Assembly (NCBI GenBank): GCA_913049555.1
Contig: CAJWYM010000005.1
Span: forward strand, 6,719-70,718
Direction: 5' to 3'
Origin: an uncultured Opitutia bacterium
GTDB lineage: Bacteria; Verrucomicrobiota; Verrucomicrobiia; Opitutales; CAJWYM01
Length of the DNA stretch: 64,000 bases
Below, one piece after another: positions 7,943 through 38,439 of the stretch. Under the pieces are notes generated by a model, which was not told the DNA's origin, did not search any database, and saw only the letters and a list, made by a program, of their open reading frames with translations. Each line of letters starts with the position of its first letter. Within the stretch, counting starts at the first letter, position 1. A program made the position numbers and the translations under genes.

Positions 7943-8310
7943 TTTATCTTCTTTACGATCGAAGTGATCACCCCCCAAATTTCATTGTCTTGGTAGAGCT
8001 CATTAGGATTCGGTTGTGATTGTGAGGAAGCGTCAAATACCATGATTTTAAACTCACCATTTCTGCAAAGAACAACTAGATCGTTTTTGCTTGGAATCAC
8101 TTGCCTATCTACAATCAATATTTCATCCTTAGAAATACCAATGGACTTTCTATCGACACCAGATCTAAAGTAAAATGTGGACTGAGGATGCTTGATAAGA
8201 ATATCAGAAATACTGAGGGAAGGTTCCATATGATCCTCAGCTGGAGAAGGAAAACCCGCTGGAATTGAATTCTCTATATTAATATTTAAAATGGGATCAA
8301 AAGCTAACAT
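7939..8310 (-). CDS. umuD: UmuD-like S24 peptidase-fold protein (catalytic dyad apparently not conserved)
   Basis: [10 protein letters not shown]...KHPQSTFYF...[10 protein letters not shown]...GEFKI aligns with E. coli UmuD (CGFPSPAADY...QHPSATYFV..GDSM..ISDGDLLIVD...GEFTVKKL). It is translationally coupled to umuC. Confidence 0.75.
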
Positions 8311-8313
8311 TAA

Positions 8314-16200: not shown

Positions 16201-19200
16201 ACAATTTAGAGTTAGCAAAACTACTGGCTGAAGAAACAGAAACCACGACCAAATCCGCAGTGACAGTGTGGGTTCCGGAATCAAGATCCTTTGAAATGTT
16301 CTGGGATTCGAGATCGATTAAATTATTCAATTCATGCGTTAAATTGATATCTGCTCCATCTGATTTTCTGATAACGATATTATGAGTACCCTCAGAGCTC
16401 GCGCTGTAGCCTCCCTGATAGAGAGTGGTGTCCGCTTGCTCATAAACATCTCCAGTGGCAACCAGTGAGGTATCTCCATGCACAAGTATCGTGGCTCCGC
16501 TCACAGAGGCATAGTCACCTGTCGTAGTCACACTGAAGTCTCCTCCGATTGTTGAAGTGTCCAAATAGGTGTCCGTCGAATCCCTTAATTCAACATTACC
16601 CTTACCAGTTGACCCAGCGGTATTGATTGTAGTTGTTTGATTTACGGTGATTCCTTGCATTTGCGTTACAGGGATTCCAGCTGTAGGTCCCGTAGTGAGA
16701 GAAAAACTTCCACCGACTGAAGAAGCAGAACCATTGCCGATGACAAAGCTGTTGGCATCTACATAAGTAGCGTTTGCAGATCCAGAGGTGCGAATACGAT
16801 TTTCCCCTTGAAAATCATTGATTGTTCCCTCAAGGCTGATTCCTCCACCATTGCCATTGATATCTGAATTTCCATAAACCACCAATTCCCAAGTGTCACT
16901 ATCTTGACTAAACCCCAAGGAATCCACCACCAGATCTCTCACTATTAGATTATGCTTCAACTCAATGGCAGTAGTATCTGTAATACTAATATTATCCTCA
17001 AAATCAAAATTGGTAAAAGTGATGTCGTTATTGAATTTATTTGTAGAAAAATCCAAGATTAGATCATGACTACTGGTATCAAAGGTGGATGTTCCTGAAA
17101 CTCTTATTTCATTGTCGTCTGTCATGTCGCCATTAGAAGTAGCAACCAAATTTCCACCAATAAGCGTTGTATTACTTAAAGATAAGTTTAAAGTCCCATT
17201 ACTATCTACTGTCAAATCATTGGAAGTTGTAGATCCACCACTTCCACTTAAAGTCAAAGCATTGGTATCCCGAATACTTACTACTTGCCCACTATTAATA
17301 GTTACATCAGAAAAATCATTGTATTGATTGTCTAAGGTTATATCTCCGGTGCCGCCCAATAAGATCAAATCTTGATTTCCAGTAATCCCTGAATCACTTT
17401 GAGTTATATTTCCAGAACCTGTATCTGTGCTAAGGGTTGTGACACCAGTCATCGATGAGGTTCCAAAAGATAGATTTGTATCGGTCGTCCCAACGGTTCC
17501 AATCAAATTATTACTAGAGGATGCTGAAGCTGTAAGCCCTCCTATGAATGTGATTGAATCTTCTGTAGTATTATTGAAAGTAACAGTTCCTGTATTCTGC
17601 AAAGTAGTCGCATCACTGATCGTTGAAGTTTGATTGCCAGAGGAGCTATTGAAGCTAAGATTATAATCTTGAGATGTAGTATTAAGGGTATTAGCAGTCA
17701 ATGCACCCTGAAAATCAATAGTTCCAGTAGTGTCCGTCAGGGTCACTGTAGATGCATCCACAGTGCTACTGAAAGTAGTTCCTCCTGATTGTGTGACCGT
17801 AACAGTCCCAAAACCCGTTCCAATAGTTCCTACCGAAACTGTTCCCGTGTTGTTGATTGTTAGATTTGATTCGGTCCCACTTACGCTCGTGACATCTATG
17901 TTGCCACTGGATCCATTCCCAACCGTGAAGGTTACTCCGTTAGACAATGAGGAAGCCCCTACATCGATCGTTCCACTCCCTCCATTCAATGTGGTGTCTG
18001 CTGTTATATTTACAGCTCCTATATCGATTTGCTGATCCGTTGCTAAGATTGTACCTGCAAGATTTTCTGTGGACCCCGCTGTTGTATCCAATCCCCCAGT
18101 AAATTCAGTGCTGTCTCCAGATCCGTCCCCTATTGTAATCGTTCCCGTATTGTTAAAAGTTGTGTCTGTAGTGATCGCTCCTCCTCCTGTCATCGATACA
18201 TCGTATCCTCGACTGAATGTGGTCAAAGTATTTGCCGTCACTGATCCTGCCAAACTAACAGATCCAGTAGCCCCCGCATTGTCTTCCTGTAAAGTCAATG
18301 TGCCAATACCCGTTTCAATTGCTCCAGAGACACTGATTGTTCCGCTTCCTGATTCCAAGGTCACGTCTTCTCCAGCGACTCCTGTGATGGATGCAACTGA
18401 AAGATTGCCTCCTCCGGTATTGGATGAATCCAGTGTCAGAGTTTGACCCGATATTAGACTAACCTCTCCCAAAGTAATGTTGTCGTTGGTGCTACTAATC
18501 GTTCCTGCTGCTTTGATCGCTCCTGAATTTGCTGTCACTCCACCATTAAAAGCAATGGTGTCTGCTGAAGCATCCCCAAACTGAGTGGTTCCTGTATTGG
18601 AAAAAGTAGAGGCACTTCCTACAGAATTACTAGACCCCTTAATGGTTACATTAAAAGCGCCACCCGCAGAAACAGTCATTCCAGAGGAGACATTTAAATT
18701 ATCGTTAAAAGCAACGGTTTGTCCATCAACCGTGTCCGTCAGGACAATTGAAGTGCTGCTAACAGAACTTTGAAAAGTTGTATCATTGCTTTGAACTACA
18801 GTTAAGGATCCAAGTGGGGTTGTAGAGCCCACGGCTCCGACAATACTAACGGTTCCCCCTGTACCACTGTTTAATGATAAATTATTGGATCCGTCGATGG
18901 TGCTGGAAAATAAAATATCTCCAGCTCCTGTTGAACCGGAACTCACTTGAGCATTCCCACCCAAAGTGACTTGATTGGAAAAAGTTATATTATCGTTGGA
19001 TGTCGTTATATCTTGGTTCAAATTGATTGTTCCTCCAGATGCCTGAACCCTGAGGGCATTAAAATTCGAACTATTGTTGGAAAAATTCACATTTCCCGAC
19101 CCACCCGCATTTAAAGTGCTCAATCCAGAAACATTTCCTGAATTCGCAGAAGATATATTATCAACTGTGATCGCTCCAGAACCACTGGTATTTAGATTGA

Positions 19201-21733
19201 TGCCGCCCGAACTGGTAATTTTCTGAAGTTCCGCACCACTGATTGAAGTATCCCCAGAAGTATCCCCTAAACCAATGGAGCGATTGTTTGTAGCTGTAAA
19301 ATCAACCGAGCCTGATCCAGCATTGACAGTTCCTGTCAAATTCAAATCGGCTCCAGTCATGGTAATATTTCGATTTTGAGTAGAAACATTGGCCGCCAAA
19401 TTCAAAGTACCACTGCCATCGGAACCATTCGCATCCGCTCGCAAAGCAATTGTGCCAGTACCAGTGGCAGAAAGATCTGCATTTATATTGATATCATTGC
19501 CTGCATCCAGTTCAACACTGATATTGGAACTACCAGTTGAGGTAGCCAAATCCCATGCATTGGATACGGTAATATCATTGGTCGCTTGCAGGATTATGTT
19601 AGAACCAGAACTGATTCCATTGAAGCTTCCAGTTCCTGCAGAAATATCAAAAACACTGTTTAAACCTGAATCATCAGCAAACAACTCACTCAAATCCGAG
19701 CCCACTGTGAATCCAGTGGTGTTTGCATCCGATCCGTTAGAAATCGTTATATTTAAAGGGTCAAACAAAACATCTCCCCCTCTTCCGATTTCATTTCCAG
19801 CAGATACATCCGCCTGACCTTTAAAATCAAGAAATTCCTTACCAGAGATCTCAGCAAATCCACCATTTCCAAAATCTTTACCGCCTGTAGCGGACAAATT
19901 TCCATAAAAACGGGTGCTTTTATCAGCCCATACTATAATTTCACCACCATCTCCAGATTGAGTCGCATCTGCTTTGATATTTGCACCCATGGAAACAACT
20001 GTTTGATCTGCATTCATAATGGACTTATTTTTGCCTTGATAGTCTCCTCCGATTAGTATTTTACCCCCTTTTTCTAATCCAGAAGCATCTAAAAGGGCAG
20101 ATTCTGTAATGGCTACTTTTTCTCCTAAAACCTGAATTTCTCCCCCAAGATTCGAATAATTTTCATTCGGTGAGGTCGAAGATGCGTCCAAAGTTCCAGC
20201 AACACTGACAATGCCTTTGTTTGCTATTAGTGAAATCCGACCTGTTGTTTCATCAAACTGCACACCTTTGGCTCGGATGATCCCAGTATTGTTGATAGCA
20301 AGTGCGTAAGAATTTCCTCCAACCGCCTGAATCTCAGTAGAAATTGCAGCTTCAATATTACCCATGTTCACAAACTCAGCACTTTCCATCTCGTCTAAAA
20401 TTTGCTTCGCTTTTTCTTCTATACTCAAATCCTCTACTGAGTCCGAAGAACTCTCCTCATTTGTGGAATCAATCACTTTTTTTAATGGTTCTGCAAGAGA
20501 AATTGAGGACCCCAGAGACCCTTTGTAATGTTTGGCTGCAATCCATTCAAATTCTGGTTCTTGAGCCTCTGAATTTAAAATTAGACTGTTCTTAGACTCT
20601 AAATTTGTGTCTGCTTTTACTTCTTCGACTGGCTGATTCTCAAAGTCCTTGGAAATGAATGCACTGTCCTCAAATGAATCCTCTTCAGTCTTCTCATTCT
20701 TTAATCCACTGGATTTAGAAAAATCTTTTTGCACGGTATTGTTATTTTCATTGTCCTTCTGATTTGCATCCGTTTCTCCAATTAAATTGTCAATAAGATC
20801 GGAATTCTTTACAAACTCACTCTCCTCCGATAAATCTTCATCTAAAGCTTCTTCGGCAACCGCCTCTTCAGCAACTGCCTCTTCAGCAACCAACTCACTT
20901 TTTGGATCCAAAGGATCACTCACACCCTCATCTAGCTGTTCACTTTCCTCTACTTTTTTATGAGAATCTGATTTTTCTTCTTTTTCTTCTTCTGGACTGG
21001 ATTCAGATTTTACCTTCTTTTTCTTTTTAATCTTAATAAAGATTCGCTGCTCTCCCGATTCTTTTATTAGCACTTCATCCGATCCAGTTGCAATTCCAAT
21101 GGTTCCATTATGAGCCCCAATGTATCCATGATTTGCAACAGAATGAGCGATTAAAAAAACATCTCCTCCGGTAGCAGAAATAGAACCCAAATTCTTTATA
21201 TTTCCTGAGACATCCCCTTTTTTAAAATGATAATCACCCCCATCCATAAAATCTGAATTGGGTATATTTAAAGTAGATCCAATGAATGAATTTACATTGA
21301 TCCTACCACTTTCTCCAATCAAAATTCCATTTGGGTTGACCAACATTACTTGGCCATTTGCCTCTAGGTTACCATAAATGGAGGAAATATTTCCAGATGT
21401 GACACGGTTTAGAGCTGCACTTCTAGAACTCGGTTGAATAAAACGGGTGGTTTCACCAACAGCTATTGAAAAACGATTCCAATCAATAATTGCTCGATCA
21501 GTCCCCTGATTGATTAGCAGCGAATTTCCCTCATAAGATAGATTTGCTTGTCCTTGCCGAACGATTCCCCCTTGTGGGTTAGCAAAAACAAGTAAAGGAG
21601 AAAAGGTGTAAATTAAGAGTAGAAAAGATAAAAAGACACCAGAAAGCTGGCGACAAAGTGGAAGGGAATATGTCTCCAAAGATTTCGAACAGTTGGCTTT
21701 GTAGGAGCCACCATCGTTGATTGGGTATCGCAT
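10205..21733 (-). CDS. giant (3842 aa) TpsA / filamentous-haemagglutinin-like beta-helical exoprotein
   Basis: There is a long leader, then a TPS secretion domain (NPQGGIVRQGQANL...LINQ.TDRAIIDWNRFSI..GETTRF.QPS..SAALNRVTSG..S.I.G.L.ANGQV.LVNPNGI..G). Further on come the GGFAEISGKEFLDF...GGDVLFDPLNITI motif and thousands of residues of T/S/G/N/D-rich repeats. The ORF is uninterrupted. Confidence 0.85.
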   Translation of the reverse strand: MRYPINDGGSYKANCSKSLETYSLPLCRQLSGVFLSFLLLIYTFSPLLVFANPQGGIVRQGQANLSYEGNSLLINQGTDRAIIDWNRFSIAVGETTRFIQPSSRSAALNRVTSGNISSIYGNLEANGQVMLVNPNGILIGESGRINVNSFIGSTLNIPNSDFMDGGDYHFKKGDVSGNIKNLGSISATGGDVFLIAHSVANHGYIGAHNGTIGIATGSDEVLIKESGEQRIFIKIKKKKKVKSESSPEEEKEEKSDSHKKVEESEQLDEGVSDPLDPKSELVAEEAVAEEAVAEEALDEDLSEESEFVKNSDLIDNLIGETDANQKDNENNNTVQKDFSKSSGLKNEKTEEDSFEDSAFISKDFENQPVEEVKADTNLESKNSLILNSEAQEPEFEWIAAKHYKGSLGSSISLAEPLKKVIDSTNEESSSDSVEDLSIEEKAKQILDEMESAEFVNMGNIEAAISTEIQAVGGNSYALAINNTGIIRAKGVQFDETTGRISLIANKGIVSVAGTLDASSTSPNENYSNLGGEIQVLGEKVAITESALLDASGLEKGGKILIGGDYQGKNKSIMNADQTVVSMGANIKADATQSGDGGEIIVWADKSTRFYGNLSATGGKDFGNGGFAEISGKEFLDFKGQADVSAGNEIGRGGDVLFDPLNITISNGSDANTTGFTVGSDLSELFADDSGLNSVFDISAGTGSFNGISSGSNIILQATNDITVSNAWDLATSTGSSNISVELDAGNDININADLSATGTGTIALRADANGSDGSGTLNLAANVSTQNRNITMTGADLNLTGTVNAGSGSVDFTATNNRSIGLGDTSGDTSISGAELQKITSSGGINLNTSGSGAITVDNISSANSGNVSGLSTLNAGGSGNVNFSNNSSNFNALRVQASGGTINLNQDITTSNDNITFSNQVTLGGNAQVSSGSTGAGDILFSSTIDGSNNLSLNSGTGGTVSIVGAVGSTTPLGSLTVVQSNDTTFQSSVSSTSIVLTDTVDGQTVAFNDNLNVSSGMTVSAGGAFNVTIKGSSNSVGSASTFSNTGTTQFGDASADTIAFNGGVTANSGAIKAAGTISSTNDNITLGEVSLISGQTLTLDSSNTGGGNLSVASITGVAGEDVTLESGSGTISVSGAIETGIGTLTLQEDNAGATGSVSLAGSVTANTLTTFSRGYDVSMTGGGAITTDTTFNNTGTITIGDGSGDSTEFTGGLDTTAGSTENLAGTILATDQQIDIGAVNITADTTLNGGSGTIDVGASSLSNGVTFTVGNGSSGNIDVTSVSGTESNLTINNTGTVSVGTIGTGFGTVTVTQSGGTTFSSTVDASTVTLTDTTGTIDFQGALTANTLNTTSQDYNLSFNSSSGNQTSTISDATTLQNTGTVTFNNTTEDSITFIGGLTASASSSNNLIGTVGTTDTNLSFGTSSMTGVTTLSTDTGSGNITQSDSGITGNQDLILLGGTGDITLDNQYNDFSDVTINSGQVVSIRDTNALTLSGSGGSTTSNDLTVDSNGTLNLSLSNTTLIGGNLVATSNGDMTDDNEIRVSGTSTFDTSSHDLILDFSTNKFNNDITFTNFDFEDNISITDTTAIELKHNLIVRDLVVDSLGFSQDSDTWELVVYGNSDINGNGGGISLEGTINDFQGENRIRTSGSANATYVDANSFVIGNGSASSVGGSFSLTTGPTAGIPVTQMQGITVNQTTTINTAGSTGKGNVELRDSTDTYLDTSTIGGDFSVTTTGDYASVSGATILVHGDTSLVATGDVYEQADTTLYQGGYSASSEGTHNIVIRKSDGADINLTHELNNLIDLESQNISKDLDSGTHTVTADLVVVSVSSASSFANSKLSGDAIVLSHADNDFDGNISITTDTADSLPLTGPAINPGNIIQTSGLIANGVTSFRTQNTSKDITLTNTANSFQQNISFVGRNVDVYDGSKSLLKHVDAGGNFNFENASGGISDRTLNSESTFINVVSDATLSSTGTGEIVLGSSEYGNVQQNTTKTTNFGTLGVTAASNKVSIIEDSDMNLNQISNTGEIYLNINGALIDNNSTTINVSDGSGGNAGKLIVKALDGIGSGNAIETQITELDAINFTSNHIAIDEVDALNVSQINNQNSSGEIAIQTNQGSSLSDASISLIQGLQEDSITISNGTLTDGDTFAVEINGFTISSEPLSASDANLQVADALETAINADANVNSAVTAINYGKFLYIKSLSPGTPYTLDNLVVTSSGGGTMTSSIQFREGATGTGGNIVLDANGINSDIDVGVQASNASSGNITLNADDSILFTAASDITTVTGDISITANVNSASGDSSNVISMTDDSLIDAGSGTIDLLSTGTHGGNITLGGLTTTDSSTSSIELSTGAAVLDGGDTYVDVVSPGRLVVNSTTGFGVSDAIETTLPSIDLTNTSLGAIQMVETDALDVVKVSQAGDSNVSITSNGVTTVLSSASGGSGIITSGTGAVTIDNGSLLANTLALSNVVTTKGGNVNLNSGGNFSSSADGDLLTTANSDTGTASGNVSILARNTGSITLLGDITTDGAGNNSGNGSNAGSITVNTSDNSLIIGVPFSANGGNSTGGNGNGGHSGNISITTGDTGSDDTHAMTVNAALSSVVGTGNGTGSLGTGSAITLSSDGAITTANTGTITSSGSGTVSLSTTNGSITNGVSIVSAEGSISLDANGLNSDLNINSSILNTGSGSILLTADDSILLASAGDISGTGSGDISLTSNTAVTDGDSGDKITMSDGAVIDSGSGTITFLSSGSNAGDITLGGLTTTNTTNTSVTITSDQSGVVDGGDTDVDIVTSGRIVIDAISGVGSGNALETTANSLDLDNTGSNHIEIVETDDVSIDRAFNTVNGGNISVQSTTGSITVSSGQSGISAVNAAITLNADGQNSDVNIQAALLNTSTGTLTITADDAVSFTAAGDYTTTGSGNVTVTSNTAVTDGDSGDGISMSDGSVVNAGSGKINLTATGSNAGNITLGGLISTNNNAVSAPQTESILITTDAAVIDGGDSDLEINTSGTLKILAETGIGSGNKLETSVDILNLLNGTSGNIEIQESDAVTVLNAKQSTSGNIDLATTNGVLTVDDSSGGTLTLVETVDSGIIYLSSGGAGGNNIIINDGITSASGNINISATANVRLTMDYSFTSSSGNFILTADSDSSLDGSQVLDLKNDSVNGDLLISNSGTGGILAYADGDIRVDTLSSNGSGQILTQSSSNSIIDGNGAANNILTTGNYSASAATGIGSSDWIETTVASLSLSNSSSGNIQVIDLDHVNIAGVTQSVSSAELRITAGNSISNSGSILSSGKSYFVAGVANGDHIDLGYSGNNFSDEVYYTLLSSNDLTVFDNSTLSLNGTEAGGDLLVNNLKVTAAGINQAVNLTVSGQSELTHINGGIKTDLTTKNNDFQGTVDLISSADFDLKDINDLNLGITSVSGTLNANSGGSITTDTSIVGTDMNLDASNRISLGKTNVGGTLSLKSGSDVSQTDGLTSENLTVDSGGSIALGNSNNQLNRLGSVSRGGALNLFDSQGGLTIDGDINTGNTANDVTIRTVGDLKLSSGLNIKTSGAGNDILLQGQGGQFYNYAGASVFDTDSRWVVYAEYFADLGGLLGDFQLYGVSYPIDPVGGSGFYWEKLLLVDPADVILPSMTGSPRDITSLGSDPYAPGFRFGSFDFPKYKSKEKMNGPYYLTDNEESEEYLNEKGDFDGRYNEVYSSKQIYVSIQEEEEEEEEDLELIEEEEDDNVLSKASSFDLNNENEKKTANKAEVTDKDVVMHINSDGEVYTGREQLAGRLPQSTERSTSEEIRVDLLINIQLYLNTIPVPQEDVATILVSRKSIEEDKRVTP
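12488..13099 (-). repeat. intragenic ~200-aa repeat unit, copy 3
   Basis: AAITLNADGQNSDVNIQ...SNTAVTDGDSGDGISMSDGSVVNAGSGKINLTATGSNAGNITLGGLIST...GIGSGNKLETSVDILNLLNGTSGNIEIQESDA. It shares a 12-aa identical block (SNTAVTDGDSGD) with copy 2. Confidence 0.65.
13133..13732 (-). repeat. intragenic ~200-aa repeat unit, copy 2
   Basis: GSISLDANGLNSDLNIN...SNTAVTDGDSGDKITMSDGAVIDSGSGTITFLSSGSNAGDITLGGLTTT...GVGSGNALETTANSLDLDNTGSNHIEIVETDD. It is followed after 11 aa by copy 3. Confidence 0.65.
14411..14998 (-). repeat. intragenic ~200-aa repeat unit, copy 1 (within giant exoprotein)
   Basis: Unit pattern: LDANG.NSD.....ADDSI...A.D.....GD(I/V)S(I/L)T....(DG)DS....(I/M)SM(T/S)D....(D/N)(A/S)GSG.I.......GGNITLGGL.T......DGGD...D......GxGSxxAIETT...(I/L)DL.N......(I/M).E.DA. 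The boundaries come from my codon count. Confidence 0.6.
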
Positions 21734-25457: not shown

Positions 25458-26489
25458 TCATTTTGATTTGTTAATAGTAGCTCCATCTCTCCAAAAGCCC
25501 TTAACCAAAACTTCTTTAGGAGATTTGGGTAAACCAAGTTGGTTCGTATTAAGATTAGTAATTACCAAATCGATTGCCGTTGCTCCGACCTGATTTAAAT
25601 TACCATCAATTCCTGCAGCCCTTTTCATCTCTGCTTTGGATCTAAATAGATATCCAACTCCAATGTCATTAGGAATTGAAATCCCTAACTTTTGCAACCA
25701 CTTTTCTACAGGTAACTTGTAAACAATCAAAGCGTCTGGTTTTTCTTTTTCTATCCAAAAAGAAAAGCTATCAAAACTGGTATCTGATTCTGGAATATAA
25801 GGATTGCATTGACAAGTTTCTGGTAAACGTCTCTGCCAATCAAGCATAGCACCTGACCATAAATAACCAGAAATTCGATTATTAAACTCAGGAACTACAA
25901 GTCCTATTTTTTTATATCCGTAGCTATTTAAGGTTTCCAAGGCAAGTCTAACGTTATGATGACCATGAAAGTTAGATCGATCGACATCGCTTTTTCTAAA
26001 ATAAGCACTTAAGCCAGCAACGGCAAAATGTTCTGTCGGTAAATCTAGTCTTCTCTGAGGATTTCTTGAAAATCCAAGTAAAACTCCCCGAATCCCCCTA
26101 GACCTCAATATCTTTTCAAGTTTTAAAGGATCATACTCATATTTCGACAATGGAAATTCTTCAATTTTAAACCCCATTTCGTCCGCCCTTTTTGATAAAC
26201 CCTCAAACTCCCATTGGCATACATCTTTTTTCTGCCAACCCCCTTTTGAGGGATAATCAGTGACTAGTGCAATCGTTCCTACCTCTTGGAAATTACTTTT
26301 TTTATGTCGATTCTTTATCAATGCACTGATCATAGGATTCGGCCGATATCCCAATTCTCTAGCTACTGAAACGATTTCTTTTCTTCTTTTTTCACTGATA
26401 CGACCGCTTCCACTCAAGGCACGAGAGACCGTGGAACTAGAAACACCTAATCGCTTTGCAACATCCAACATCCTAACTGTGTCTCTCAT
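25458..26489 (-). CDS. LacI-family transcriptional regulator
   Basis: N-terminal HTH MLDVAKRLGVSSSTVSRALSG...ISEKRRKEIVSVARELGYRPN followed by a periplasmic-binding-protein-like sugar-binding core. I chose the start at ATG 26489; the ORF-track start is 26519. Confidence 0.85.
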   Translation of the reverse strand: MRDTVRMLDVAKRLGVSSSTVSRALSGSGRISEKRRKEIVSVARELGYRPNPMISALIKNRHKKSNFQEVGTIALVTDYPSKGGWQKKDVCQWEFEGLSKRADEMGFKIEEFPLSKYEYDPLKLEKILRSRGIRGVLLGFSRNPQRRLDLPTEHFAVAGLSAYFRKSDVDRSNFHGHHNVRLALETLNSYGYKKIGLVVPEFNNRISGYLWSGAMLDWQRRLPETCQCNPYIPESDTSFDSFSFWIEKEKPDALIVYKLPVEKWLQKLGISIPNDIGVGYLFRSKAEMKRAAGIDGNLNQVGATAIDLVITNLNTNQLGLPKSPKEVLVKGFWRDGATINKSK

Positions 26490-26552
26490 ACTGAAACTTA
26501 AGCATATAATAGACCGCATTTAAAATTGTTCAGATTATAAACAATTTAAAAT

Positions 26553-27536
26553 TCAACCTATTTCTTTATTTTCATATTCTCCAAAATCTAAAGCGATTGA
26601 GATGCCTTTATGGGCAATTGAAATTCCAGGCTGTTTTTTAAATTTTCCTATTGAATCTACAAAAATAGATTCTTGATCGCTAAAAAGAGTTTGAACTTCT
26701 TTCAAATCATTTCCTTTTAATGCTAACAGATATCCAAAACTAGGAAAGGAAATCAACCATTTTAACCAATTGGTTTCTTTAGGAATAAACAAAGAATCTA
26801 AATCCAAAATGGCACCCAGCTTGGAACATTTTGAAAACATTGCAAGGGTTCCGATTATGCCCCCATTGGAAATATCTTTAGCGGCTTTACACAATCCTCT
26901 GTGAGCCAATTCAGGGAAAATGGATATTATTTTTTGAAGTTTTTTTGGACTACTTGATGTACTCGAATTCCAAAAAGGTTTTTCGCGTCGAAAGGCTCCA
27001 TCTGTATCGAGAACCATTACCAGTTGATCCCCTGCCTCAGCCTCAAAACTAGTTAGTAGTTTAGAACCTGCACGTCCCAAGACTGATGCAGCTAAGTAAA
27101 CCTTCTCTGTTTTTTCAATATTTTTTGTTGTATGACCACCCACTATAGGCACTGAATAGTCCTGAGAAGCTGCACACATGCCCATCCATATTTCATTTAC
27201 CATGTCTTCATCATGATCAGAACACCAAAGCACATCCGTAATAGCGATAGGTTTTCCACCCATGGCAACGACATCGCTAATATTGACCATAATAGAGGAA
27301 TATCCTGCGAACCAGGGATCTTGCTCAACAAAACTACTGATCATTCCTTCGGCAGCAAAAAGAATATGCCCCCCAGATATTGGGTCTAATATTGCAGCAC
27401 AATCATCTCCGATTTTTATGTCTTTAGATTGACCTTCTGCATGCTTGTATGTCTTAGAAATAAAAACTTTTTCTAGAACAGACGGATGACGAGCCAAATC
27501 CTTAGCCAACTGCTTGAGATTTAAATTTTTTGGCAT
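26553..27536 (-). CDS. AIR-synthase-related protein, Sll0787-like (Nit1C cluster member)
   Basis: ThiL/PurM-type N-domain motif IGDDCAAI...GGHILFAAEG, NISDVVAMGGKP, GGHT. The 327-aa size and context match the sll0787 family. Confidence 0.7.
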   Translation of the reverse strand: MPKNLNLKQLAKDLARHPSVLEKVFISKTYKHAEGQSKDIKIGDDCAAILDPISGGHILFAAEGMISSFVEQDPWFAGYSSIMVNISDVVAMGGKPIAITDVLWCSDHDEDMVNEIWMGMCAASQDYSVPIVGGHTTKNIEKTEKVYLAASVLGRAGSKLLTSFEAEAGDQLVMVLDTDGAFRREKPFWNSSTSSSPKKLQKIISIFPELAHRGLCKAAKDISNGGIIGTLAMFSKCSKLGAILDLDSLFIPKETNWLKWLISFPSFGYLLALKGNDLKEVQTLFSDQESIFVDSIGKFKKQPGISIAHKGISIALDFGEYENKEIG

Positions 27537-27578
27537 CTAAATTTGAATAAAAAAACATTTCATTAAATTCTTAAATCT

Positions 27579-28145
27579 TTATGCAACCCTGCAAGCAGGT
27601 TTGTAATAATTCAGATCCGCTTGCATCAATGCATGTTCTAAACCATGCAATTCAATTGAGTTTAACTTCAACCAGTGCAATCGTTCAAAAAATTTTACAT
27701 TTTGTTTTTGAACAGTAGCCAAAAATTGATGGCAGCCAATTGCATTTGCAGTGGAAACTGCTTTGTAAATCAGTCCTGCACCAATGGCTCCAAGTCCAGC
27801 GTTGCAGGGTTGCTTGTTTCTAATAGAAGCAGCAGAACTGAAACGACGGACCCTTCGATAATTGTGAGCAACACCAAGCCTACTTCCATACCAAACACCA
27901 GACTCTCGTTCGTTAATACGAACGCAACCAATCAAATCATCCTCCATACCAGCGATAAGAGATTTGCAAACAATGGGAATCATCGATTCATCTATGAGAT
28001 CTAAATCACTGATTTCAAAAAGAGACTGCTCGGCACAAAAAATGTCTTTTCTCAATTGATAAAACCCTTCAATGTCTTCGCTAGATGTAGCAATCTTAAA
28101 TATATAATCCTGAGATTGATAATTTTTAAACTTTTCTAAAATCAT
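27579..28145 (-). CDS. GNAT N-acetyltransferase, MSMEG_0567/Sll0786-like (Nit1C cluster member)
   Basis: 188 aa with a GNAT-like core (VRINE....WYGSRLGV...R). The assignment rests mainly on size and conserved cluster context. Confidence 0.6.
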   Translation of the reverse strand: MILEKFKNYQSQDYIFKIATSSEDIEGFYQLRKDIFCAEQSLFEISDLDLIDESMIPIVCKSLIAGMEDDLIGCVRINERESGVWYGSRLGVAHNYRRVRRFSSAASIRNKQPCNAGLGAIGAGLIYKAVSTANAIGCHQFLATVQKQNVKFFERLHWLKLNSIELHGLEHALMQADLNYYKPACRVA

Positions 28146-28175
28146 GATGCAAAGGTTGATAAAAATAAAGTTTCC

Positions 28176-29444
28176 CTAAATTAAATGATAATCATTTGTT
28201 GGATTATGACTTAGAGATTCTACCACATTATCAGCAATAAACTTTGAATCTTCAGCAATACCGGAAAATCTTGAAGACCCCCATGTATTTTGCCAAGGAA
28301 GTCCTATAAAAAAAAGTCCAGAAATTCTAGTAATTCCTCGCTCGTGAACTGGAAAACCACGATTGTCAAATATGTTTGCATGAATGTAATCAAAATTCGG
28401 TTTATAACCGATACACCAAATAATGTTGGCAATCTCATTGTCTAGAAAATTAAGCTCCGTTTTCTCACTAGCTGGATTCCAACAGGGTTCATAATCAGAT
28501 TCTAAAGGAACATCGATTCCTTTTTCTTTAATGTAATCATCAATACGCTTTCTGATTCCTAGGTAAGATTTATCTGCATTGTCTAGTTTTTCTTTCAAAT
28601 CAGCTTTAGCAACAAAACCATCCTGATTGACTTTTTCTAAATACCCGTACAAGCGTACTCCTTGTTGAGCAAATTTACGTAAATCGATTTCTTTGCCACC
28701 ATCTCTGCCTGACAAGTAATGATTTGTGCCTGTAAGTGCTTTTTTCTGATTTGGATGTTCTGCAAAGGTAGTTTTATAATATCCCATCTCTTCCAACCAA
28801 GCAACTGCATCTTTACCTCTGTATTTACGAGGAGATCTTGGAGCGTTCCCAAGAAACAAGTGAACTTGATGACCTTCCAACATCAAATCCTCAGCAATTT
28901 GACATCCTGATTGACCCGAACCAACAATTATTGTGGCTCCATCTCTCATTTGAGATGAATTCTTGTATTTATTGGCTTGAATTTGAAGGATTGATTTGGG
29001 TATAGATTCAACGTTTTTTGGAAAAACCGGAGTGTGAAATGAACTAGTAGCGACAATGACATTTTTGCAATTCCAGCGACCATTGGTAGCTTTAATGATA
29101 AATGCATCGGATTCTTTTTCTACTGAAATTACTTCAACACCCTCGAAAATTGGACATTTAATTTTCTCAGCAAACTTTAATACATATTCAACAATTTCTT
29201 GCTTCAACATGAATCCGCTAGGATCAGATCCAGCGTAATCATGATCAGGCAATCTACATTGAAAATTGGGTGTTACTAAAGAAAAGTTGTCCCATCTTTC
29301 ATTTTTCCAACTATGGGCAATTTCATTTTTTTCAAAAATAATTTGATTTAAAATACCCATCTTTTGTAAATAATAAGACACACTCAATCCCGCTTGACCC
29401 GCACCAATAATTGCAACGTCCACGGTATTTACTAAGTCGCTCAT
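28176..29444 (-). CDS. flavin-dependent (two-dinucleotide-binding-domain) oxidoreductase, MSMEG_0569-like (Nit1C cluster member)
   Basis: FAD motif VAIIGAGQAGLS near the N-terminus and a second Rossmann motif IIVGSGQSGCQIAEDL; 422 aa. Confidence 0.8.
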   Translation of the reverse strand: MSDLVNTVDVAIIGAGQAGLSVSYYLQKMGILNQIIFEKNEIAHSWKNERWDNFSLVTPNFQCRLPDHDYAGSDPSGFMLKQEIVEYVLKFAEKIKCPIFEGVEVISVEKESDAFIIKATNGRWNCKNVIVATSSFHTPVFPKNVESIPKSILQIQANKYKNSSQMRDGATIIVGSGQSGCQIAEDLMLEGHQVHLFLGNAPRSPRKYRGKDAVAWLEEMGYYKTTFAEHPNQKKALTGTNHYLSGRDGGKEIDLRKFAQQGVRLYGYLEKVNQDGFVAKADLKEKLDNADKSYLGIRKRIDDYIKEKGIDVPLESDYEPCWNPASEKTELNFLDNEIANIIWCIGYKPNFDYIHANIFDNRGFPVHERGITRISGLFFIGLPWQNTWGSSRFSGIAEDSKFIADNVVESLSHNPTNDYHLI

Positions 29445-29451
29445 TTTTTTA

Positions 29452-29727
29452 CTAAATTTTGATGACTACGATTTTATCATCATGTTTGAAGTTTGAAGAA
29501 ATTTTTTGAATTCTTTTTAAAGAATTCAAAGCTCCAGTGCATTGGAATCCATACTTTTCTTCCACTCGATCGGAAGCAATCTTGAGAGACTCCTGAGCTT
29601 TAGTTAGAAAAATCGAATTTGTCAGGACATCACCCTCAGAAAAATAATCCAGTACAATGGAAGAGGGAGAATAGCAATCCATCTGTGATCCGTCAGGCAA
29701 ACCAATTGTAAACGTTGTTTCAGGCAT
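29452..29727 (-). CDS. small (~91 aa) MSMEG_0570-like protein (Nit1C cluster member)
   Basis: I chose the start at ATG 29727, 4 nt after the radical SAM stop. The ORF-track start at 29793 would overlap by 62 nt. The size and position between the rSAM and flavoprotein genes fit the family, and there is no other recognisable motif. Confidence 0.5.
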   Translation of the reverse strand: MPETTFTIGLPDGSQMDCYSPSSIVLDYFSEGDVLTNSIFLTKAQESLKIASDRVEEKYGFQCTGALNSLKRIQKISSNFKHDDKIVVIKI

Positions 29728-29731
29728 AAAT

Positions 29732-30886
29732 TTAGAAAGCTGAGCAGCTGTTGTGGTTGTTTTCAAAAGTGGAGAGCGTGGAGCAAGCTCCACATTTAGC
29801 GCAACCTGCTTTGACAGTATTTGAGGACATGCCAGCCTTTGCTAGCATAGCTCCAATTGGAGACAAAACCGAACGCATGAAGTCAGTATTTGGCGCTGGA
29901 TGATTTTCAAGTTGTGTTCCAGTAACTGGAACAAAAGGAACAACAAATGGATAAACGCCTAAATCTATCAAAGTTCGAGATGCATGAATAAGCTCCTCTT
30001 TGGTATCTCCCAAACCCGCTAATAAATAGGTGCTGACTTGACCACGACCAAACACTTTTACAGATGCTTTAAAAGCATCCATGTAATAGCTAAGGGGAAC
30101 TTCCGCTTTTCCCGGCATTATTTTTGCCCTTACCTTATCATTCCAAGCCTCTAGATGCATTCCCAAACTATCGACACCAGATTCATGCAAACGCTTAAAC
30201 CAAAAGAAATCGTCTGGGGGTTCACATTGAGCCTGTATGGCAAGACCTGTCGCATCTTTGATTGCCCTAGCAGAATCACATAAAATAGAAGCACCTCGAT
30301 CATTCGTGGTGGGCGTTCCTGTAGTAAGAACCACTTGACGAACTCCATCATACTTCATGGCAGCATAGGCAACCTCAGCAAGTTGTTCAGGGGATTTTTT
30401 AGCAATTGTGCGCCCCGATTTTAATGACTCACCAATGGCACAAAATTGGCATTTTGTATTTTTATTACCATAGCGTATGCAGGTTTGTAAAACCGTTGAA
30501 GCTAAAACATCGGTTGAATGAAGGGTAGCAATTTTCCAGTAGGGAATCTCATCTACAGTCCTCAGAGAGTAAAATCTAGGTTGAGGGGGAAAAGTTACTT
30601 TGACCACAGGAATATTGATAAAGTTTAAAGAAGCTGTTCCATCAGATTGAATGGGTCCCAAAGAAAATGGAGATCCTTCCACAGAATATGTGTGAACTGG
30701 AACCATAACAGTGCTCCCTAAAACAGTCATTGCCTTATGATCAGTGGGACCGGCACCACCTATTCTTGAAGGAGCACCAAAATCAGAGGACAACTGAACT
30801 CCGTAAGATTGAAGTTCAGTCAACAAATAGCTCTTGTCAGCGATAATATTGTGACTGTAGTTTTTAGCAGTTGGTAACCGGTTCAT
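29732..30886 (-). CDS. radical SAM-type protein, MSMEG_0568-like (Nit1C cluster member)
   Basis: Cys cluster ...[18 protein letters not shown]..., TIM-barrel-like pattern, 384 aa. The start overlaps the nitrilase stop by 23 nt. Confidence 0.65.
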
Positions 30887-31838
30887 TCAAGGCATTGGAT
30901 TTAGGTTTTAAAGGTTCATGATTATCAATTTTAAGTTGTTCCTCCTTGTTGACAGACAATGAGAACAGGTCGGGTCTTGAATAATGTCCAACTGAGTCCA
31001 TCATTCGTTTTCTTTTGGTGATCAATGAGAAATCAAGATCCGCAATCGCCATGCCCTCACCATCAGTAATAGGCTCGCACATGTGGGAACCATCAGGTGC
31101 AATTATAGCTGTAAAACACCCACCAGTAAGTGTCTTTTGCATTTTCTCGTTCGGAGTAATGGTTGCACGCTGGCTCGGAGTCAACCAACCAGTTGAATTG
31201 ACAACGAAACAACCTGATTCCAGAGCATGATGACGGATAGAAACCTCAATTTGATCAGCAAATATTTTTCCGACCATAGAACCAGGAAATTGAGAACAAT
31301 GTATCTGTTCAGAATCCGCCATTAAAGTATATCGAGCAAGAGGGTTGTAATGCTCCCAACAAGCCAAGGCTCCAATTCTTCCAACAGATGTATCTACTGC
31401 TCTCAAGCCAGAACCATCCCCTCTGCCCCAGATCATTCTTTCATGAAAAGAAGGCGTGATTTTTCGTCTTTTCAACTTTATTTCCCCATCCGAATCGATT
31501 ATCAATTGAGAGTTATAAAGAGACTCACCATCTCTTTCGTTCATCCCTATACAGAGAACCATATTGTGTTCCAAAGCAGCCTGTTTGAGCTGATTTACTA
31601 ATGGTCCAGGAACAACTACGGCTTCCTGATAAAGCTTTAAATGAGAATTCCCTGAAGACACCGGCGGTTCAACAAAAGAAAAATATGGATAATAAGGGAT
31701 GAAAGTTTCTGGAAAAACAGCCAGCTGCACGTTTTGTTTGGAGGCTTCGAAAATAGCATCGCAAACTAAACGGACTGTGCCTGAACAACTGTTAAGGTCA
31801 GGAGCTATTTGAATGGCTGCAGCTCTAACTGTTTTCAT
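30864..31838 (-). CDS. nitrilase (Nit6803/Sll0784-like)
   Basis: Carbon-nitrogen hydrolase Glu-Lys-Cys triad regions: [38 protein letters not shown]. Confidence 0.9.
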
Positions 31839-31860
31839 CTGACAAACAATTCAACAGAAA

Positions 31861-32343
31861 TTAAACCGTCCAGGAATCCATGATTACAGCATTCGCTTTT
31901 TTATGAATCAGTATGCAATCAAGAACATCGAGTGGGTTTATGGGAATAATTCCAGGAATGAAAGCCTTTTCCGTTTGACCGTACAAGGCTTGGGTCGAAA
32001 AACGACAACCATACACTTTCCCTCCCTCTTCCATGAATTTAGACAATCGCTGATTAACAAAAAGATGTCCTGGGAAAGCTTCATCTCCTAAAGTTGGGAA
32101 TCCCCTTTGAAAACCCATTGTAACACCAGGACCGTATAGCAGGATGGAAGTTTCATAACCCTTTCGCTGCAATCGGGTCGCAGAAAGAGTATTAACGATG
32201 CTGATAGAGCCTTCAAAAGCCACTGTATGAAAAGTAACCAACGCCTTTTCTCCAGGTTCTGCTTTTACATCCTCGAAAACTTTTTCTTCATAATCTACTA
32301 AAAAGTCTCCATCTTTGTGTTCGGGTAATTCTACTTTGGGCAT
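31861..32343 (-). CDS. 160-aa MSMEG_0572/Sll0783-like protein (first gene of Nit1C cluster)
   Basis: The size and its position directly upstream of the nitrilase match the conserved cluster. I recognised no catalytic motif. Confidence 0.5.
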
Positions 32344-32389
32344 GATTTTAATCCTTTAATTGTGAGTTGGGTGAATGAAATGAGAGTTT

Positions 32390-32405
32390 TGCAATTAGAA
32401 TGCCA
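32390..32405 (-). promoter_or_regulatory. sigma-54 (-24/-12) promoter TGGCAT-N5-TTGCA upstream of the Nit1C operon
   Basis: The minus-strand sequence GGGTGGCATTCTAATTGCAAAA has GG and GC separated by exactly 10 nt, as in the TGGCAC-N5-TTGCA consensus. The -12 element lies 48 nt upstream of the ATG at 32343. Confidence 0.6.
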
Positions 32406-32433
32406 CCCTTTTATTTTAGTCATTGTAATTTGC

Positions 32434-32479
32434 GCACATCATTGTCCTAGTTAATTTCATTTATGCATATCATTGTCCT
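32434..32479. promoter_or_regulatory. two 15-nt direct repeats (GCACATCATTGTCCT / GCATATCATTGTCCT) 31 bp apart, upstream of the sigma-54 promoter
   Basis: 14 of 15 positions are identical. The repeats are centred roughly 60 and 90 nt upstream of the predicted start site, and a third partial CATTGT lies at 32421. Confidence 0.35.
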
Positions 32480-35991: not shown

Positions 35992-36027
35992 AATCGGGGT
36001 TCAAAAACAAAATCTCAATTCTTAAAA

Positions 36028-38439
36028 TTAGATGGATTGGATCAAGTATCGGCCGGGTTTCGCTTGAAAAGTCCCATCTTGATTAGCCACTTCTAGCGGA
36101 TCTCCTCCATCCAGTCTATAAACCTCCATAGTATTTTTCAATCCGGGCAATTGAATAGTAATTGGCATCAATCTTTCCTTATCGACAAGAACCGCTGGGC
36201 TTCTTTTTCTTTTATCAAACTTAAAAATTCCAGGTGTAAACTCCGCATGTGGTTTTAATTCTAACAACCAAGAAACCCTGCCGGTTCGCTCCTCAATTTT
36301 CTTTTCTATAAAATACAGACCCTTTCCTTGATATTTGATAAAAGGGGAATCTCCGTATCCAATAATCTTTAAGACACTTTTTTGTTCTCCTAAAAATTCT
36401 GAGGATACATCTCCAGTATGAATAAAAATCTCTTCCGAGGAATAAGCACTTAAATCCTCGGTAAATGAAAAATGAGCATTCTTGGATCGATCCGAAAAAT
36501 CCGTCGTTGTTTGATAATTAATATATCGTGGAGTTTCATAAAAGATTTCTCTAGCAACTAAAAAACTCGCTGCTTTTCTTGGAGTTGTCATCAAATTTAA
36601 ATTGTGAGACACATTTTTTGACATGAACTGCCCAATATTTCCCATATTGTAAGTCCACATAGTTGCAATTTGAGCACCCTGTGCGCGAAAATATTTAGCC
36701 ATAGCTGGGTATAGGTAGGTTGTTTGATTGTGCCAAGTCTCAAACTCATAAACGATAGAAGACTTTCGACCCTTGAAGCGATCCTCTGTCAACCAAGACT
36801 GGTAATCTGGAAGTTTGTACGATTTTTTTAAATAGGGTAAATAATTCTTTTTTTCCAGACCATGCTCTTTATCATTCAAATGGTCTTCATCACTATCATT
36901 TTGCCCAGGATAAGTGGAAAAGGAAACCATATCGACCTCAGAGTCAGCAGCTGCCCGAAAAGCCTCTGGTCCCTGATGCTTAGGACCTTGTGACCAATAA
37001 AGATTCCAACAAGTAATCGCTGGAACTTTTTCTCGATCTAGCAAATCCTTGATTAAATTTATATATTTCTTGATCGATTCATATTTATAAGTCGAATAAT
37101 TCCTATTGTTGACCTCTTTATTTCGTGAAGAACACCACTTTTTAAGTGCTTCATATCCTTCAGGAAATTCTCTTTCTCTAGGAATTTCTTTGGGCCATCC
37201 GGGCTCATTGATCAGCTCAGCTACAATCCAAGCAGGATTGTTTTTATAAAGACGATTTTGATCGTAGGGATTCTTTCGGTTCACAAACTGCTTGATATAG
37301 TTTTCGCTTGCTTTTAAGAATCTGGGAACGGTCATGAGTTCCCATTTATGCTCTTTCAGTCGACTGTTGAAAAATGAATTTTTAACATGATTTCCAAGAT
37401 GATTTAAGAGGGCAAAGTTTATATAAATCCCTCTTTTTACACATTCAGCCATAGTATAATCCACCATGTCGAGCCATTCATTTTCTACTAAATTACCATT
37501 CTCATCGGTGAAATCACCGGGACCCAAATGGATTCTTATCACATCACATCCCATTTGCTGAATTTCATCGAATCCTCGATCTGTAATAACCTTCCAATCC
37601 TCTAAATTAAATTTTGAAAAATCTCTTGCTAATCGTCTGTATCGATTGAATTCCCAAGACATAGCAGACTGAAAATTCACGCCCCATAATTTTACCTCTT
37701 CACCATCCTCAAAGTAGAGCGTTCCCTCTTTTACAAATACAGATTGAAACTTTGAATCCAATTCTAGCTTGGACCTATTGGATTTAAGACTTGGCTTCAC
37801 AATTTTAGATTCTGGTAATAATTGGTTCAAGGGATTAGCCTTGTCGACAACGGGTTTTACAAGTTCCGTGAGAGCAGAAATTGTCTCGGGATCAAAAGAT
37901 GGAGTTGTAGGGTTTGAAAAAGCGTTTTTATCAGATTTAGTAAATCCCTCAGAATTAGTTTTAATTGTTAAATTATCAGTTTGTTCCGTCACATCAGTTA
38001 ATACACTTTGTTCATTCAGCGTTTCGTTGGATTCAAAATCTTTCTCGCTTACAGACAAAAGATCCCTCTCCGTTTCAGAAGAATCTAGGAATTTTAAAAC
38101 GAAATAACCTCCAGAAATTATAAGAATAAAGATTAAAAAAATGGAGGCAACGAACCCCCAAGAAAAAAAAGAACGGCCCGAATCGTTTTTTTCAGTGGTA
38201 ACGACCTTCGATTTAGAAGCTGGTTTTTTATTTTTGTTTTTGGAAGATTTCTCTTTATTTAATTTTAGGTTTTGTTGCCTCTCCATCCAATCCCCAATGA
38301 GATGCCAGTTTTCTCCATCCGTGCACAAATAATCTGAGTCAAGAACGGATCCCTCCTCAAGCAAAGCTTTCAATTCAGAAAGACGATAGGGTCCGTAAGT
38401 CTCTTCGTCAGCGAGAGTATGTATAAAAATAGATGCCAT
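36028..38439 (-). CDS. GYF_2(DUF4339)-like N-terminal domain + single TM + clan GH-A (GH5-like) TIM-barrel glycoside hydrolase
   Basis: The N-terminus is YGPYRLSELKALLEEG.....YLCTDGENWHLIGDW. The TM segment FFSWGFVASIFLIFILIISGGYFVL covers aa ~91-117. The catalytic region is DVIRIHLGPGDF.DENGN...WLDMVDY....C.KRGIYI, with AELINEPGWP (NEP acid/base motif) and VYEFETW. It is paralogous to 40071..41876. Confidence 0.6.
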   Translation of the reverse strand: MASIFIHTLADEETYGPYRLSELKALLEEGSVLDSDYLCTDGENWHLIGDWMERQQNLKLNKEKSSKNKNKKPASKSKVVTTEKNDSGRSFFSWGFVASIFLIFILIISGGYFVLKFLDSSETERDLLSVSEKDFESNETLNEQSVLTDVTEQTDNLTIKTNSEGFTKSDKNAFSNPTTPSFDPETISALTELVKPVVDKANPLNQLLPESKIVKPSLKSNRSKLELDSKFQSVFVKEGTLYFEDGEEVKLWGVNFQSAMSWEFNRYRRLARDFSKFNLEDWKVITDRGFDEIQQMGCDVIRIHLGPGDFTDENGNLVENEWLDMVDYTMAECVKRGIYINFALLNHLGNHVKNSFFNSRLKEHKWELMTVPRFLKASENYIKQFVNRKNPYDQNRLYKNNPAWIVAELINEPGWPKEIPREREFPEGYEALKKWCSSRNKEVNNRNYSTYKYESIKKYINLIKDLLDREKVPAITCWNLYWSQGPKHQGPEAFRAAADSEVDMVSFSTYPGQNDSDEDHLNDKEHGLEKKNYLPYLKKSYKLPDYQSWLTEDRFKGRKSSIVYEFETWHNQTTYLYPAMAKYFRAQGAQIATMWTYNMGNIGQFMSKNVSHNLNLMTTPRKAASFLVAREIFYETPRYINYQTTTDFSDRSKNAHFSFTEDLSAYSSEEIFIHTGDVSSEFLGEQKSVLKIIGYGDSPFIKYQGKGLYFIEKKIEERTGRVSWLLELKPHAEFTPGIFKFDKRKRSPAVLVDKERLMPITIQLPGLKNTMEVYRLDGGDPLEVANQDGTFQAKPGRYLIQSI

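Follow-up and report, generated by a model that had tools for sequence, protein, structure and literature searches.

Introduction

The Nit1C gene cluster, which includes the genes of a nitrilase and a radical S-adenosylmethionine (SAM) protein, has been described from Verrucomicrobium spinosum (Podar, Eads & Richardson 2005, BMC Evol Biol 5:42), from Pseudomonas pseudoalcaligenes/oleovorans CECT5344 and P. fluorescens NCIMB 11764 (nitA-nitBCDEFGH), from Synechocystis (sll0783-0787) and from Mycobacterium smegmatis (the gpr cluster, MSMEG_0565-0572). Here, we analyse a further copy, located on the minus strand at positions 26553-32343 of a 64-kb stretch (hereafter, the window) of contig CAJWYM010000005.1 from an uncultured Opitutia bacterium. 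We compare its genes, its order and its putative control elements with those of related loci.

A response to nitrogen limitation is the common theme of the Synechocystis and M. smegmatis clusters. Under nitrogen starvation the M. smegmatis cluster is induced more than 500-fold in a GlnR-dependent manner; it also raises the NADPH/NADP ratio and confers peroxide resistance, and the Synechocystis cluster has been linked to the cellular redox state. Pseudomonas mutants in nitA, nitB and nitC do not grow on cyanide or nitriles, and among picocyanobacteria the cluster is enriched in low-nitrogen ocean regions. A preliminary description of the window, made from its letters and open reading frames (ORFs), had stated that no substrate or product of Nit1C is defined, and this agrees with the literature that we searched, up to 2026.

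The window copy has the same seven families as the V. spinosum cluster, in which ORFs 6 and 7 likewise lie between 3 and 4. The 2005 description mentions no linked LacI-family regulator, sigma-54 promoter or operator motif, whereas candidates for all three are found in the window; it reported no conserved transcription-factor binding sites upstream and no conservation outside Nit1C. The seven structural genes are also homologous to those of the Pseudomonas strains, with which the window shares a sigma-54-type promoter upstream of the first gene (in the window predicted from sequence alone) and an identical numbering of the nitrilase catalytic tetrad (E44, K126, E133, C160). The gene order differs, being B-C-D-E-F-G-H in Pseudomonas and B-C-D-G-H-E-F in the window. 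Furthermore, Pseudomonas has an adjacent Fis-family activator, NitA, while the window has none in its 64 kb and carries a linked LacI-family regulator gene instead. The Synechocystis and M. smegmatis clusters comprise the same families and are the namesakes of the corresponding NCBIfam models. M. smegmatis has in addition a MSMEG_0565-type glycosyltransferase and, as its domain models imply, a GNAT-AIRS fusion, neither of which occurs in the window. The regulators of these two clusters are NtcA and GlnR, respectively, in contrast to the sigma-54 element and LacI-type regulator of the window; the cyanobacterial locus lacks a sigma-54 element.

Results

Identity and layout of the cluster

The seven ORFs of the cluster are listed below in their order of transcription. 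Families were assigned with NCBIfam/TIGRFAM profile models and their curated cutoffs, and domains with Pfam.

31861..32343, minus strand: gene 1, NitB / Sll0783 / MSMEG_0572 family, 160 aa (TIGR04044, 265.5 bits, cutoff 109.85)
30864..31838, minus strand: gene 2, NitC, Nit6803-family nitrilase, 324 aa (TIGR04048, 540.2 bits, cutoff 502.6)
29732..30886, minus strand: gene 3, NitD, MSMEG_0568-family radical SAM protein, 384 aa (TIGR04043, 542.8 bits, cutoff 303.7)
29452..29727, minus strand: gene 6, NitG, MSMEG_0570 family, 91 aa (TIGR04042, 95.7 bits, cutoff 79.85)
28176..29444, minus strand: gene 7, NitH, MSMEG_0569-family flavin-dependent oxidoreductase, 422 aa (TIGR04046, 574.1 bits, cutoff 498.35)
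27579..28145, minus strand: gene 4, NitE, MSMEG_0567/Sll0786-family GNAT, 188 aa (TIGR04045, 190.5 bits, cutoff 68.45)
26553..27536, minus strand: gene 5, NitF, sll0787-family AIR-synthase-like (PurM-superfamily) protein, 327 aa (TIGR04049, 334.6 bits, cutoff 321.3)

The intergenic spacers, in gene order, are 22, -23, 4, 7, 30 and 42 nt: 22 nt separate the 160-aa gene from the nitrilase gene, and the nitrilase and radical SAM genes overlap by 23 nt. Lying on a single strand with spacers of -23 to 42 nt, the genes have the operon-like packing of Nit1C. The sizes of the first and sixth ORFs (160 and 91 aa) likewise fit the 160-163 aa and about 100 aa that characterise the cluster. All seven proteins clear the cutoff of their own Nit1C-specific model, with a narrow margin for gene 5, and such family scores are far beyond chance. 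Pfam was concordant for the five proteins with known domains and gave no match for the two orphans, the 160-aa and 91-aa proteins, even at E ≤ 10. Because all seven proteins exceed the trusted cutoffs, the identification of a complete Nit1C stands, and the window almost certainly holds an intact cluster of the sll0783-0787 / MSMEG_0567-0572 type.

The preliminary description had proposed this membership, subject to a profile search with the seven proteins, and had reported a packed minus-strand cluster with gaps of 4-42 nt and a 23-nt overlap; both points are borne out. The motifs it had named are likewise all present: VFPETF (E44), RRKITP (K126), ALACWEH (C160), GAGQAG, GSGQSG and GDDCAAI. 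For the 91-aa gene the mechanical ORF begins at a GTG at 29793 (113 aa); we place the start at the ATG at 29727 because the MPET N-terminus is invariant in the family.

A recent horizontal transfer is unsupported, as the GC content of the cluster (0.36-0.42) lies inside the range of the window. An Rfam search (E ≤ 1) over positions 24000-36200 gave no match, thus no known riboswitch or leader RNA. No terminator-like site was seen in the cluster spacers, in a scan whose counts were no higher than those of shuffled sequences.

A sigma-54-type element upstream of gene 1

The putative control features of the cluster, all of them absent from the preliminary description, are the following, with scores from a position weight matrix (PWM) where given.

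32390..32405, minus strand: sigma-54-type -24/-12 element, TGGCAT-N5-TTGCA, 46 nt upstream of the first ATG
32431..32448, minus strand: operator-like site 2, AGGACAATGATGTGCGCA (PWM 10.7 bits), ending 25 nt upstream of the -24 element
32462..32479, minus strand: operator-like site 1, AGGACAATGATATGCATA, the distal copy of a 31-nt tandem repeat and a degenerate version of TGCGCAAYGATRTGCRCA
25458..26489, minus strand: LacI-family regulator gene (ORF to 26519; likely start Met11 at 26489 by alignment), Pfam LacI and Peripla_BP_3

The -24/-12 element is the only match to TGGCAY-N5-TTGCW in the 64-kb window, where 0.08 matches are expected. We then considered its conservation in a comparison set of 80 genome loci, 18 of them verrucomicrobial, against which the seven window proteins were run by tblastn. 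Counting as an element GG-N10-GC with at least 9 of 11 consensus positions, ending 40-100 nt upstream of gene 1, we found one in 52 of the 80 loci, where the background density predicts 0.4. The threshold is reached by only 3/18 verrucomicrobial loci, and the rest have a weaker GG-N10-GC at the same position; in the nearest other species (L083) the sigma-54 element reads TGGCATCTCGATTGCT. It is absent upstream of gene 1 in the three Bacteroidota loci and the one cyanobacterial locus. In several verrucomicrobial relatives (L058, L002, L015 and L016) a second TGGCA(C) half-element lies about 5-15 nt upstream of the -24 box, for example GTGGCACGGCGTGGCACCCGCTTTGCT in L058; the window has one only.

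The position and conservation of the element make it likely that the operon depends on sigma-54, which fits the sigma-54/NitA dependence known in Pseudomonas. Its conservation also lends indirect support to an induction of the cluster by nitrogen starvation or cyanide. The preliminary description had noted that a NitA-type activator is missing from the window, and a scan of all frames of the 64 kb for the signature of bacterial enhancer-binding proteins (bEBPs; GAFTGA plus Walker A) found none. A NitA-like bEBP signature adjoins the cluster in only 9 of the 80 loci, all gamma-proteobacterial or myxococcal (Acinetobacter, Photorhabdus and Xenorhabdus, and three myxococcal loci, among them). A conserved element that mostly lacks a linked activator suggests control by a general nitrogen regulator; most lineages, including this one, would plausibly rely on such an unlinked protein. 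In the mechanism that we propose, the sigma-54 promoter would drive the operon through an activator encoded elsewhere, probably of the NtrC type and responsive to nitrogen limitation, paralleling the control by NtcA, GlnR and NitA in other phyla.

A LacI-family regulator and an operator-like motif

The protein encoded at 25458..26489 has a LacI helix-turn-helix (HTH) domain (PF00356, 53.8 bits) and an effector domain (PF13377) whose 26.5 bits are exactly at the cutoff; against solved LacI-family proteins there was no sequence match beyond the HTH. Homologues with 40-56% identity adjoin the cluster in 16/18 verrucomicrobial loci. The two loci without one are short fragments (of the L023 type) holding gene 1 only, L043 being the verrucomicrobial one; in two other verrucomicrobial loci, L009 and L014, one cluster gene is missing from the tblastn table. 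No homologue was found in the loci of other phyla within the set of 80. In a database search, over 120 clusters shared at least 51% identity, and the named ones are all Verrucomicrobiota. Six independent look-ups of regulator homologues all placed them beside Nit1C, one on a frameshifted long-read contig, and the 16 loci and the look-ups together span 40-74% identity. Within this tight orthologue family the recognition helix (S-x-STVSRAL) does not vary, and neither do many residues of the effector domain.

In most relatives the regulator gene is divergent and upstream of gene 1, and in Verrucomicrobiaceae it is convergent and downstream. In the window's species alone it lies downstream on the same strand, 63 nt past gene 5, and no terminator-like site was seen between the two genes, where an AT-rich hairpin is present. 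The spacer holds, at 26523-26547 (minus strand), a perfect 8-bp inverted repeat, AAATTGTT-N9-AACAATTT, with no T-run after it, which may be an attenuator or a binding site.

All verrucomicrobial Nit1C promoter regions have in common an 18-bp imperfect palindrome with the consensus TGCGCAAYGATRTGCRCA, which in Chthoniobacterales takes the extended form GTTGCGCA-N6-TGCGCAAC. A PWM built from 14 sites, with L009, L011 and L014 held out, gives 17-28 bits between -106 and -171 for every locus with the LacI-type gene, including the three held out. Nothing comparable occurs at that position in the other phyla of the comparison set, and in newly fetched loci the motif was again confined to the Nit1C promoter. 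The two window sites precede the -24 element by 25 and 56 nt and are contained in a 31-nt direct repeat of two copies (77% identity); L083 has the same layout of two sites 31 nt apart. The motif was also sought at a nitrogen-assimilation gene: L085 carries an ammonium-transporter gene (amt, 17261-18748) about 7 kb from its Chthoniobacterales-type Nit1C, and both the 18-bp motif and a sigma-54-like element are absent from its upstream region.

Given its recurrent company, the LacI-type protein is probably a dedicated Nit1C regulator, and we infer that the 18-bp sites are its putative operators. It would gate the operon by binding these sites and responding to a small molecule related to the pathway. 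In the window's species, with the regulator gene moved behind gene 5 in the same orientation, transcription from the operon promoter may extend into it, which would provide negative feedback. No description of a conserved sigma-54 promoter together with a lineage-specific LacI-type regulator and motif was found in the papers searched, and this combination is apparently the only undescribed feature here.

The proteins and their possible modules

The nitrilase is a close homologue of Nit6803 (492 bits to PDB 3WUY), and its E44, K126, E133 and C160 are at least 97% conserved in an alignment with 79 homologues. Hydrolysis of a nitrile to the acid and ammonium is a safe inference for this enzyme.

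The gene 1 and 91-aa proteins have no match in the PDB by phmmer or profile, and we compared their predicted models with the PDB using Foldseek. The top 14 matches of the gene 1 model (pLDDT 69, pTM 0.71) are all DsrE/DsrF/YchN/TusBCD structures, the best with E = 2.6e-6 and with TM scores to the target of 0.73-0.79. Thus, the protein models as a DsrE-like alpha/beta fold, in line with earlier tentative assignments in the literature. Its Cys113 is invariant (81/81 sequences) and sits at a strand-to-helix junction in the model.

The radical SAM protein has a non-canonical but invariant CX9CX2C motif (C136, C146, C149), plus C221 and a C-terminal CX2CX2C (C362, C365, C368), which are also invariant; the extra cysteines suggest an auxiliary cluster. 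It has no sequence homologue in the PDB, and outside its own family it resembles only LipS2, BioB and LipA, weakly.

The 91-aa protein is confidently modelled (pLDDT 90), with no PDB fold match better than E = 0.39, and its Cys18 and Cys63 are conserved. Among 1.84 billion proteins its family (NitG) has 378 representatives, nearly all stand-alone; in three of them (P0306, P0345 and P0364) NitG is fused to the flavoprotein. In three further records (P0389, P0376 and P0313), two join an AIRS-like C-terminus to NitG and one joins the NitG N-terminus to a fragment of an FtrA/GbdR-like regulator; such joins may be genuine or may have arisen from gene calling on error-prone contigs.

The flavoprotein matches Pyr_redox_3 in Pfam, and the solved structures closest to it are 4USR and 4A9W, type II FMOs of the small bacterial kind. 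The AIRS-like protein matches AIRS and AIRS_C and is nearest to ThiL, PurL, PurM, HypE and SelD, ATP-dependent enzymes that activate an oxygen by phosphorylation. Conserved cysteines also occur in the flavoprotein (C63) and in the GNAT (C138).

Across the 80 loci, genes 1-2-3 are invariably contiguous and genes 4-5 always move together; a GNAT-AIRS fusion in mycobacteria is implied by the NCBIfam domain models for MSMEG_0567. Contiguity, co-movement and gene fusions suggest that the seven genes fall into three functional modules. The first would consist of the DsrE-like protein, the nitrilase and the radical SAM enzyme with its auxiliary Fe-S cluster; the second, of the GNAT and the PurM-type ATP-dependent enzyme; the third, of the 91-aa cysteine protein and the FMO-like flavoprotein.

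Gene order, neighbourhood and relatives

The window order, 1-2-3-6-7-4-5, recurs in L001, L002, L058 and L015-17 of the comparison set and in L083, L084, L086 and L087, fetched separately; its carriers include Luteolibacter, Puniceicoccaceae, Prosthecobacter, Phragmitibacter, Verrucomicrobiaceae and Pelagicoccus. Proteobacteria, Acidobacteriota and Myxococcota have 1-2-3-4-5-6-7, Bacteroidota 7...1-2-3-4-5-6, and Chthoniobacterales a split arrangement, 4-5 / 1-2-3-6-7. The departure from the Pseudomonas nitB-H order was therefore rightly noted in the preliminary description, yet it is typical of the lineage, as the synteny over 80 loci and Podar et al. (2005) indicate.

The associated glycosyltransferase had been reported as missing from the window, and a tblastn search with the L018 protein agrees (best E = 2.2 in the 64 kb). 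In L018 this MSMEG_0565-family gene (TIGR04047, 455 bits) is inserted between genes 5 and 6. Homologues occur in 33/80 loci, none of them verrucomicrobial.

Genes of sulfatases and MFS_2 sugar transporters abound in the window and flank the cluster, as had been observed. We rejected the sulfatase, MFS and DUF481 neighbours as members of the system: none adjoins the cluster in the 80 related loci, and on this ground the glycan context is incidental.

By gene 1, the nearest relatives are Puniceicoccaceae bacterium K14 (95%), a Luteolibacter metagenome-assembled genome (MAG; 94%) and a Verrucomicrobiota MAG (93%), and near-identical contigs (97-100%) occur in two ENA metagenome assemblies. In L086, a long-read contig at 4.56x, the Nit1C genes (3800-9600) are broken into many small called ORFs, and tblastn recovers them. 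This contig shows how frameshift errors hide such clusters from gene-based indices.

Elsewhere in the window, all on the minus strand, we noted the following genes.

10205..21733, minus strand: giant ORF of 3842 aa, in which Pfam recognises a single DUF5649 repeat (residues 1505-1573) and nothing else; the product is probably a large adhesin-like or surface protein
36028..38439 and 40071..41876, minus strand: two large ORFs (803 and 601 aa) in which Pfam recognises no domain at E ≤ 1e-5; both are situated between sulfatase genes, with two MFS_2 transporters upstream of them, and might encode glycan-active enzymes not yet characterised
6701..7978, minus strand: ImpB/MucB/UmuC-type translesion polymerase gene (IMS, IMS_C, DUF4113), unrelated to the cluster
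5926..6570, minus strand: 214-aa ORF directly downstream of the polymerase gene; could be a umuD-like partner

Discussion

The window copy is a typical verrucomicrobial representative of a cluster known since 2005. The explanation that best accommodates the observations, and that we moderately favour, is an intact verrucomicrobial Nit1C operon, induced by nitrogen limitation and under sigma-54 and LacI-type control, that yields ammonium derived from a nitrile. For the physiological role itself, nitrogen scavenging through a nitrile, we see about an even chance. The Nit6803-type nitrilase would cleave the nitrile to a carboxylate and ammonium, which would serve as a nitrogen source, and the other six proteins would make or process that nitrile as three modules.

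Several observations weigh against this explanation. According to the literature, the nitrilase has poor catalytic efficiency on all tested nitriles, its physiological substrate being undefined, and the M. smegmatis and Synechocystis phenotypes point to redox and NADPH effects rather than simple nitrogen release. The DsrE-like model of the gene 1 protein is of moderate confidence only (pLDDT 69). As regards control, neither rpoN nor a sigma-54 activator was found in the 64-kb window, and a generic scan of positions 24000-36200 for sigma-70 promoters and terminators gave counts not above those of shuffled sequences and is uninformative on transcription units. The motif copies in the window are degenerate (at most 10.7 bits, against 17-28 in relatives), and, since the motif and the LacI gene are both restricted to the lineage, shared ancestry confounds their co-occurrence; an activator could bind the motif instead.

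The main rival to nitrogen scavenging, which we regard as the less likely of the two, is a biosynthetic or redox pathway that under nitrogen starvation would make or recycle a small metabolite containing sulfur and nitrogen. In such a pathway the carrier of a persulfide or of sulfur would be the DsrE-like protein; sulfur or carbon radical chemistry would fall to the BioB/LipS2-like radical SAM enzyme and the redox steps to the FMO-like flavoprotein with its 91-aa cysteine partner, and the nitrilase would contribute one maturation step or a structural core. The DsrE/TusBCD-like fold with its invariant Cys113 is consistent with such roles, and yet gene 1 and DsrE have no sequence-level match by which Cys113 could be placed against the active-site Cys78 of DsrE/TusD. 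Similarly, the seven invariant cysteines of the radical SAM protein, and LipS2, BioB and LipA as its only outside relatives, point to this chemistry, but the resemblance to sulfur-inserting enzymes is faint, at 49.8 bits where the cutoff is 270. The conserved cysteines of the 91-aa protein, the flavoprotein and the GNAT, the NADPH/NADP and peroxide phenotypes of M. smegmatis gpr, and the MshA/BshA-like GT4 glycosyltransferase that accompanies the cluster in 33/80 loci argue in the same direction. In addition, the authors of the Nit11764 study doubted nitrile hydrolysis as the sole role and suggested a metabolon. Against all this, no product has ever been detected, and the Pseudomonas nitB and nitC mutants fail specifically with cyanide and nitriles as nitrogen source.

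A different question is what binds the 18-bp motif. It is rather improbable, in our judgement, that the motif is the upstream activating sequence of an NtrC-like sigma-54 enhancer-binding protein, with the LacI gene regulating something else or acting elsewhere. At glnAp2, tandem NtrC sites lie upstream of a sigma-54 promoter, and the enteric NtrC half-sites are TGCACC/GGTGCA. The window resembles this layout in having, ahead of a sigma-54 promoter, two copies spaced by 31 nt, or three helical turns, and the arms of the motif (TGCRCA ... TGCRCA) are loosely like those half-sites; moreover, in L016 and L017 the LacI gene's own upstream region has no copy of the motif. However, a 20-kb locus has one or two copies of the motif, always at the Nit1C promoter and not at the amt gene 7 kb away in L085, and every locus with the motif has the LacI-type gene as well. 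The centres, at about -61 and -92 from the predicted start, are nearer than those of most enhancer sites, and the invariance of the LacI recognition helix across the family is consistent with a conserved operator.

Dedicated cyanide assimilation (cyanotrophy), in which cyanide and a 2-oxoacid would form a cyanohydrin non-enzymatically for the nitrilase to hydrolyse, the rest being accessory, has the Pseudomonas model and mutant phenotypes in its favour, and the same inference in the literature for Antarctic and marine cyanobacteria, but we consider it unlikely in this glycan-degrading verrucomicrobium: the nitrilase is poor on cyanide and modest on nitriles; if only two genes were needed, it would be hard to see why all seven are so strictly conserved across phyla; and the conserved effector pocket of the LacI-type regulator speaks for an organic ligand and not for cyanide.

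Few bacterial gene clusters of undefined chemistry are conserved as widely as Nit1C, which was described 20 years ago. It has been tied to nitrogen starvation, cyanide assimilation and redox balance, and the window copy leaves its chemistry unsolved. What the comparison adds is a conserved sigma-54-type promoter, a lineage-specific LacI-type regulator with a putative operator motif, and a module structure. Most loci of Proteobacteria and Myxococcota have a sigma-54-type element ahead of the cluster; the matches in Verrucomicrobiota are related to it but for the most part weaker.

The Verrucomicrobia appear to have recruited a dedicated LacI-type regulator and operator, and the ligand of this protein could reveal the substrate of the pathway. 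An idea that we put forward as speculative, and hold to be improbable as it stands, is that the three modules form a machine that builds or recycles a metabolite containing sulfur and nitrogen, and that in Verrucomicrobiota the LacI-type repressor senses this metabolite or a precursor of it. If a metabolite-sensing repressor is indeed at work, the regulator would offer, through ligand screening, a direct biochemical handle on the elusive substrate. Cultured carriers with the same layout (Pelagicoccus, Luteolibacter and Puniceicoccaceae K14) make these ideas testable.

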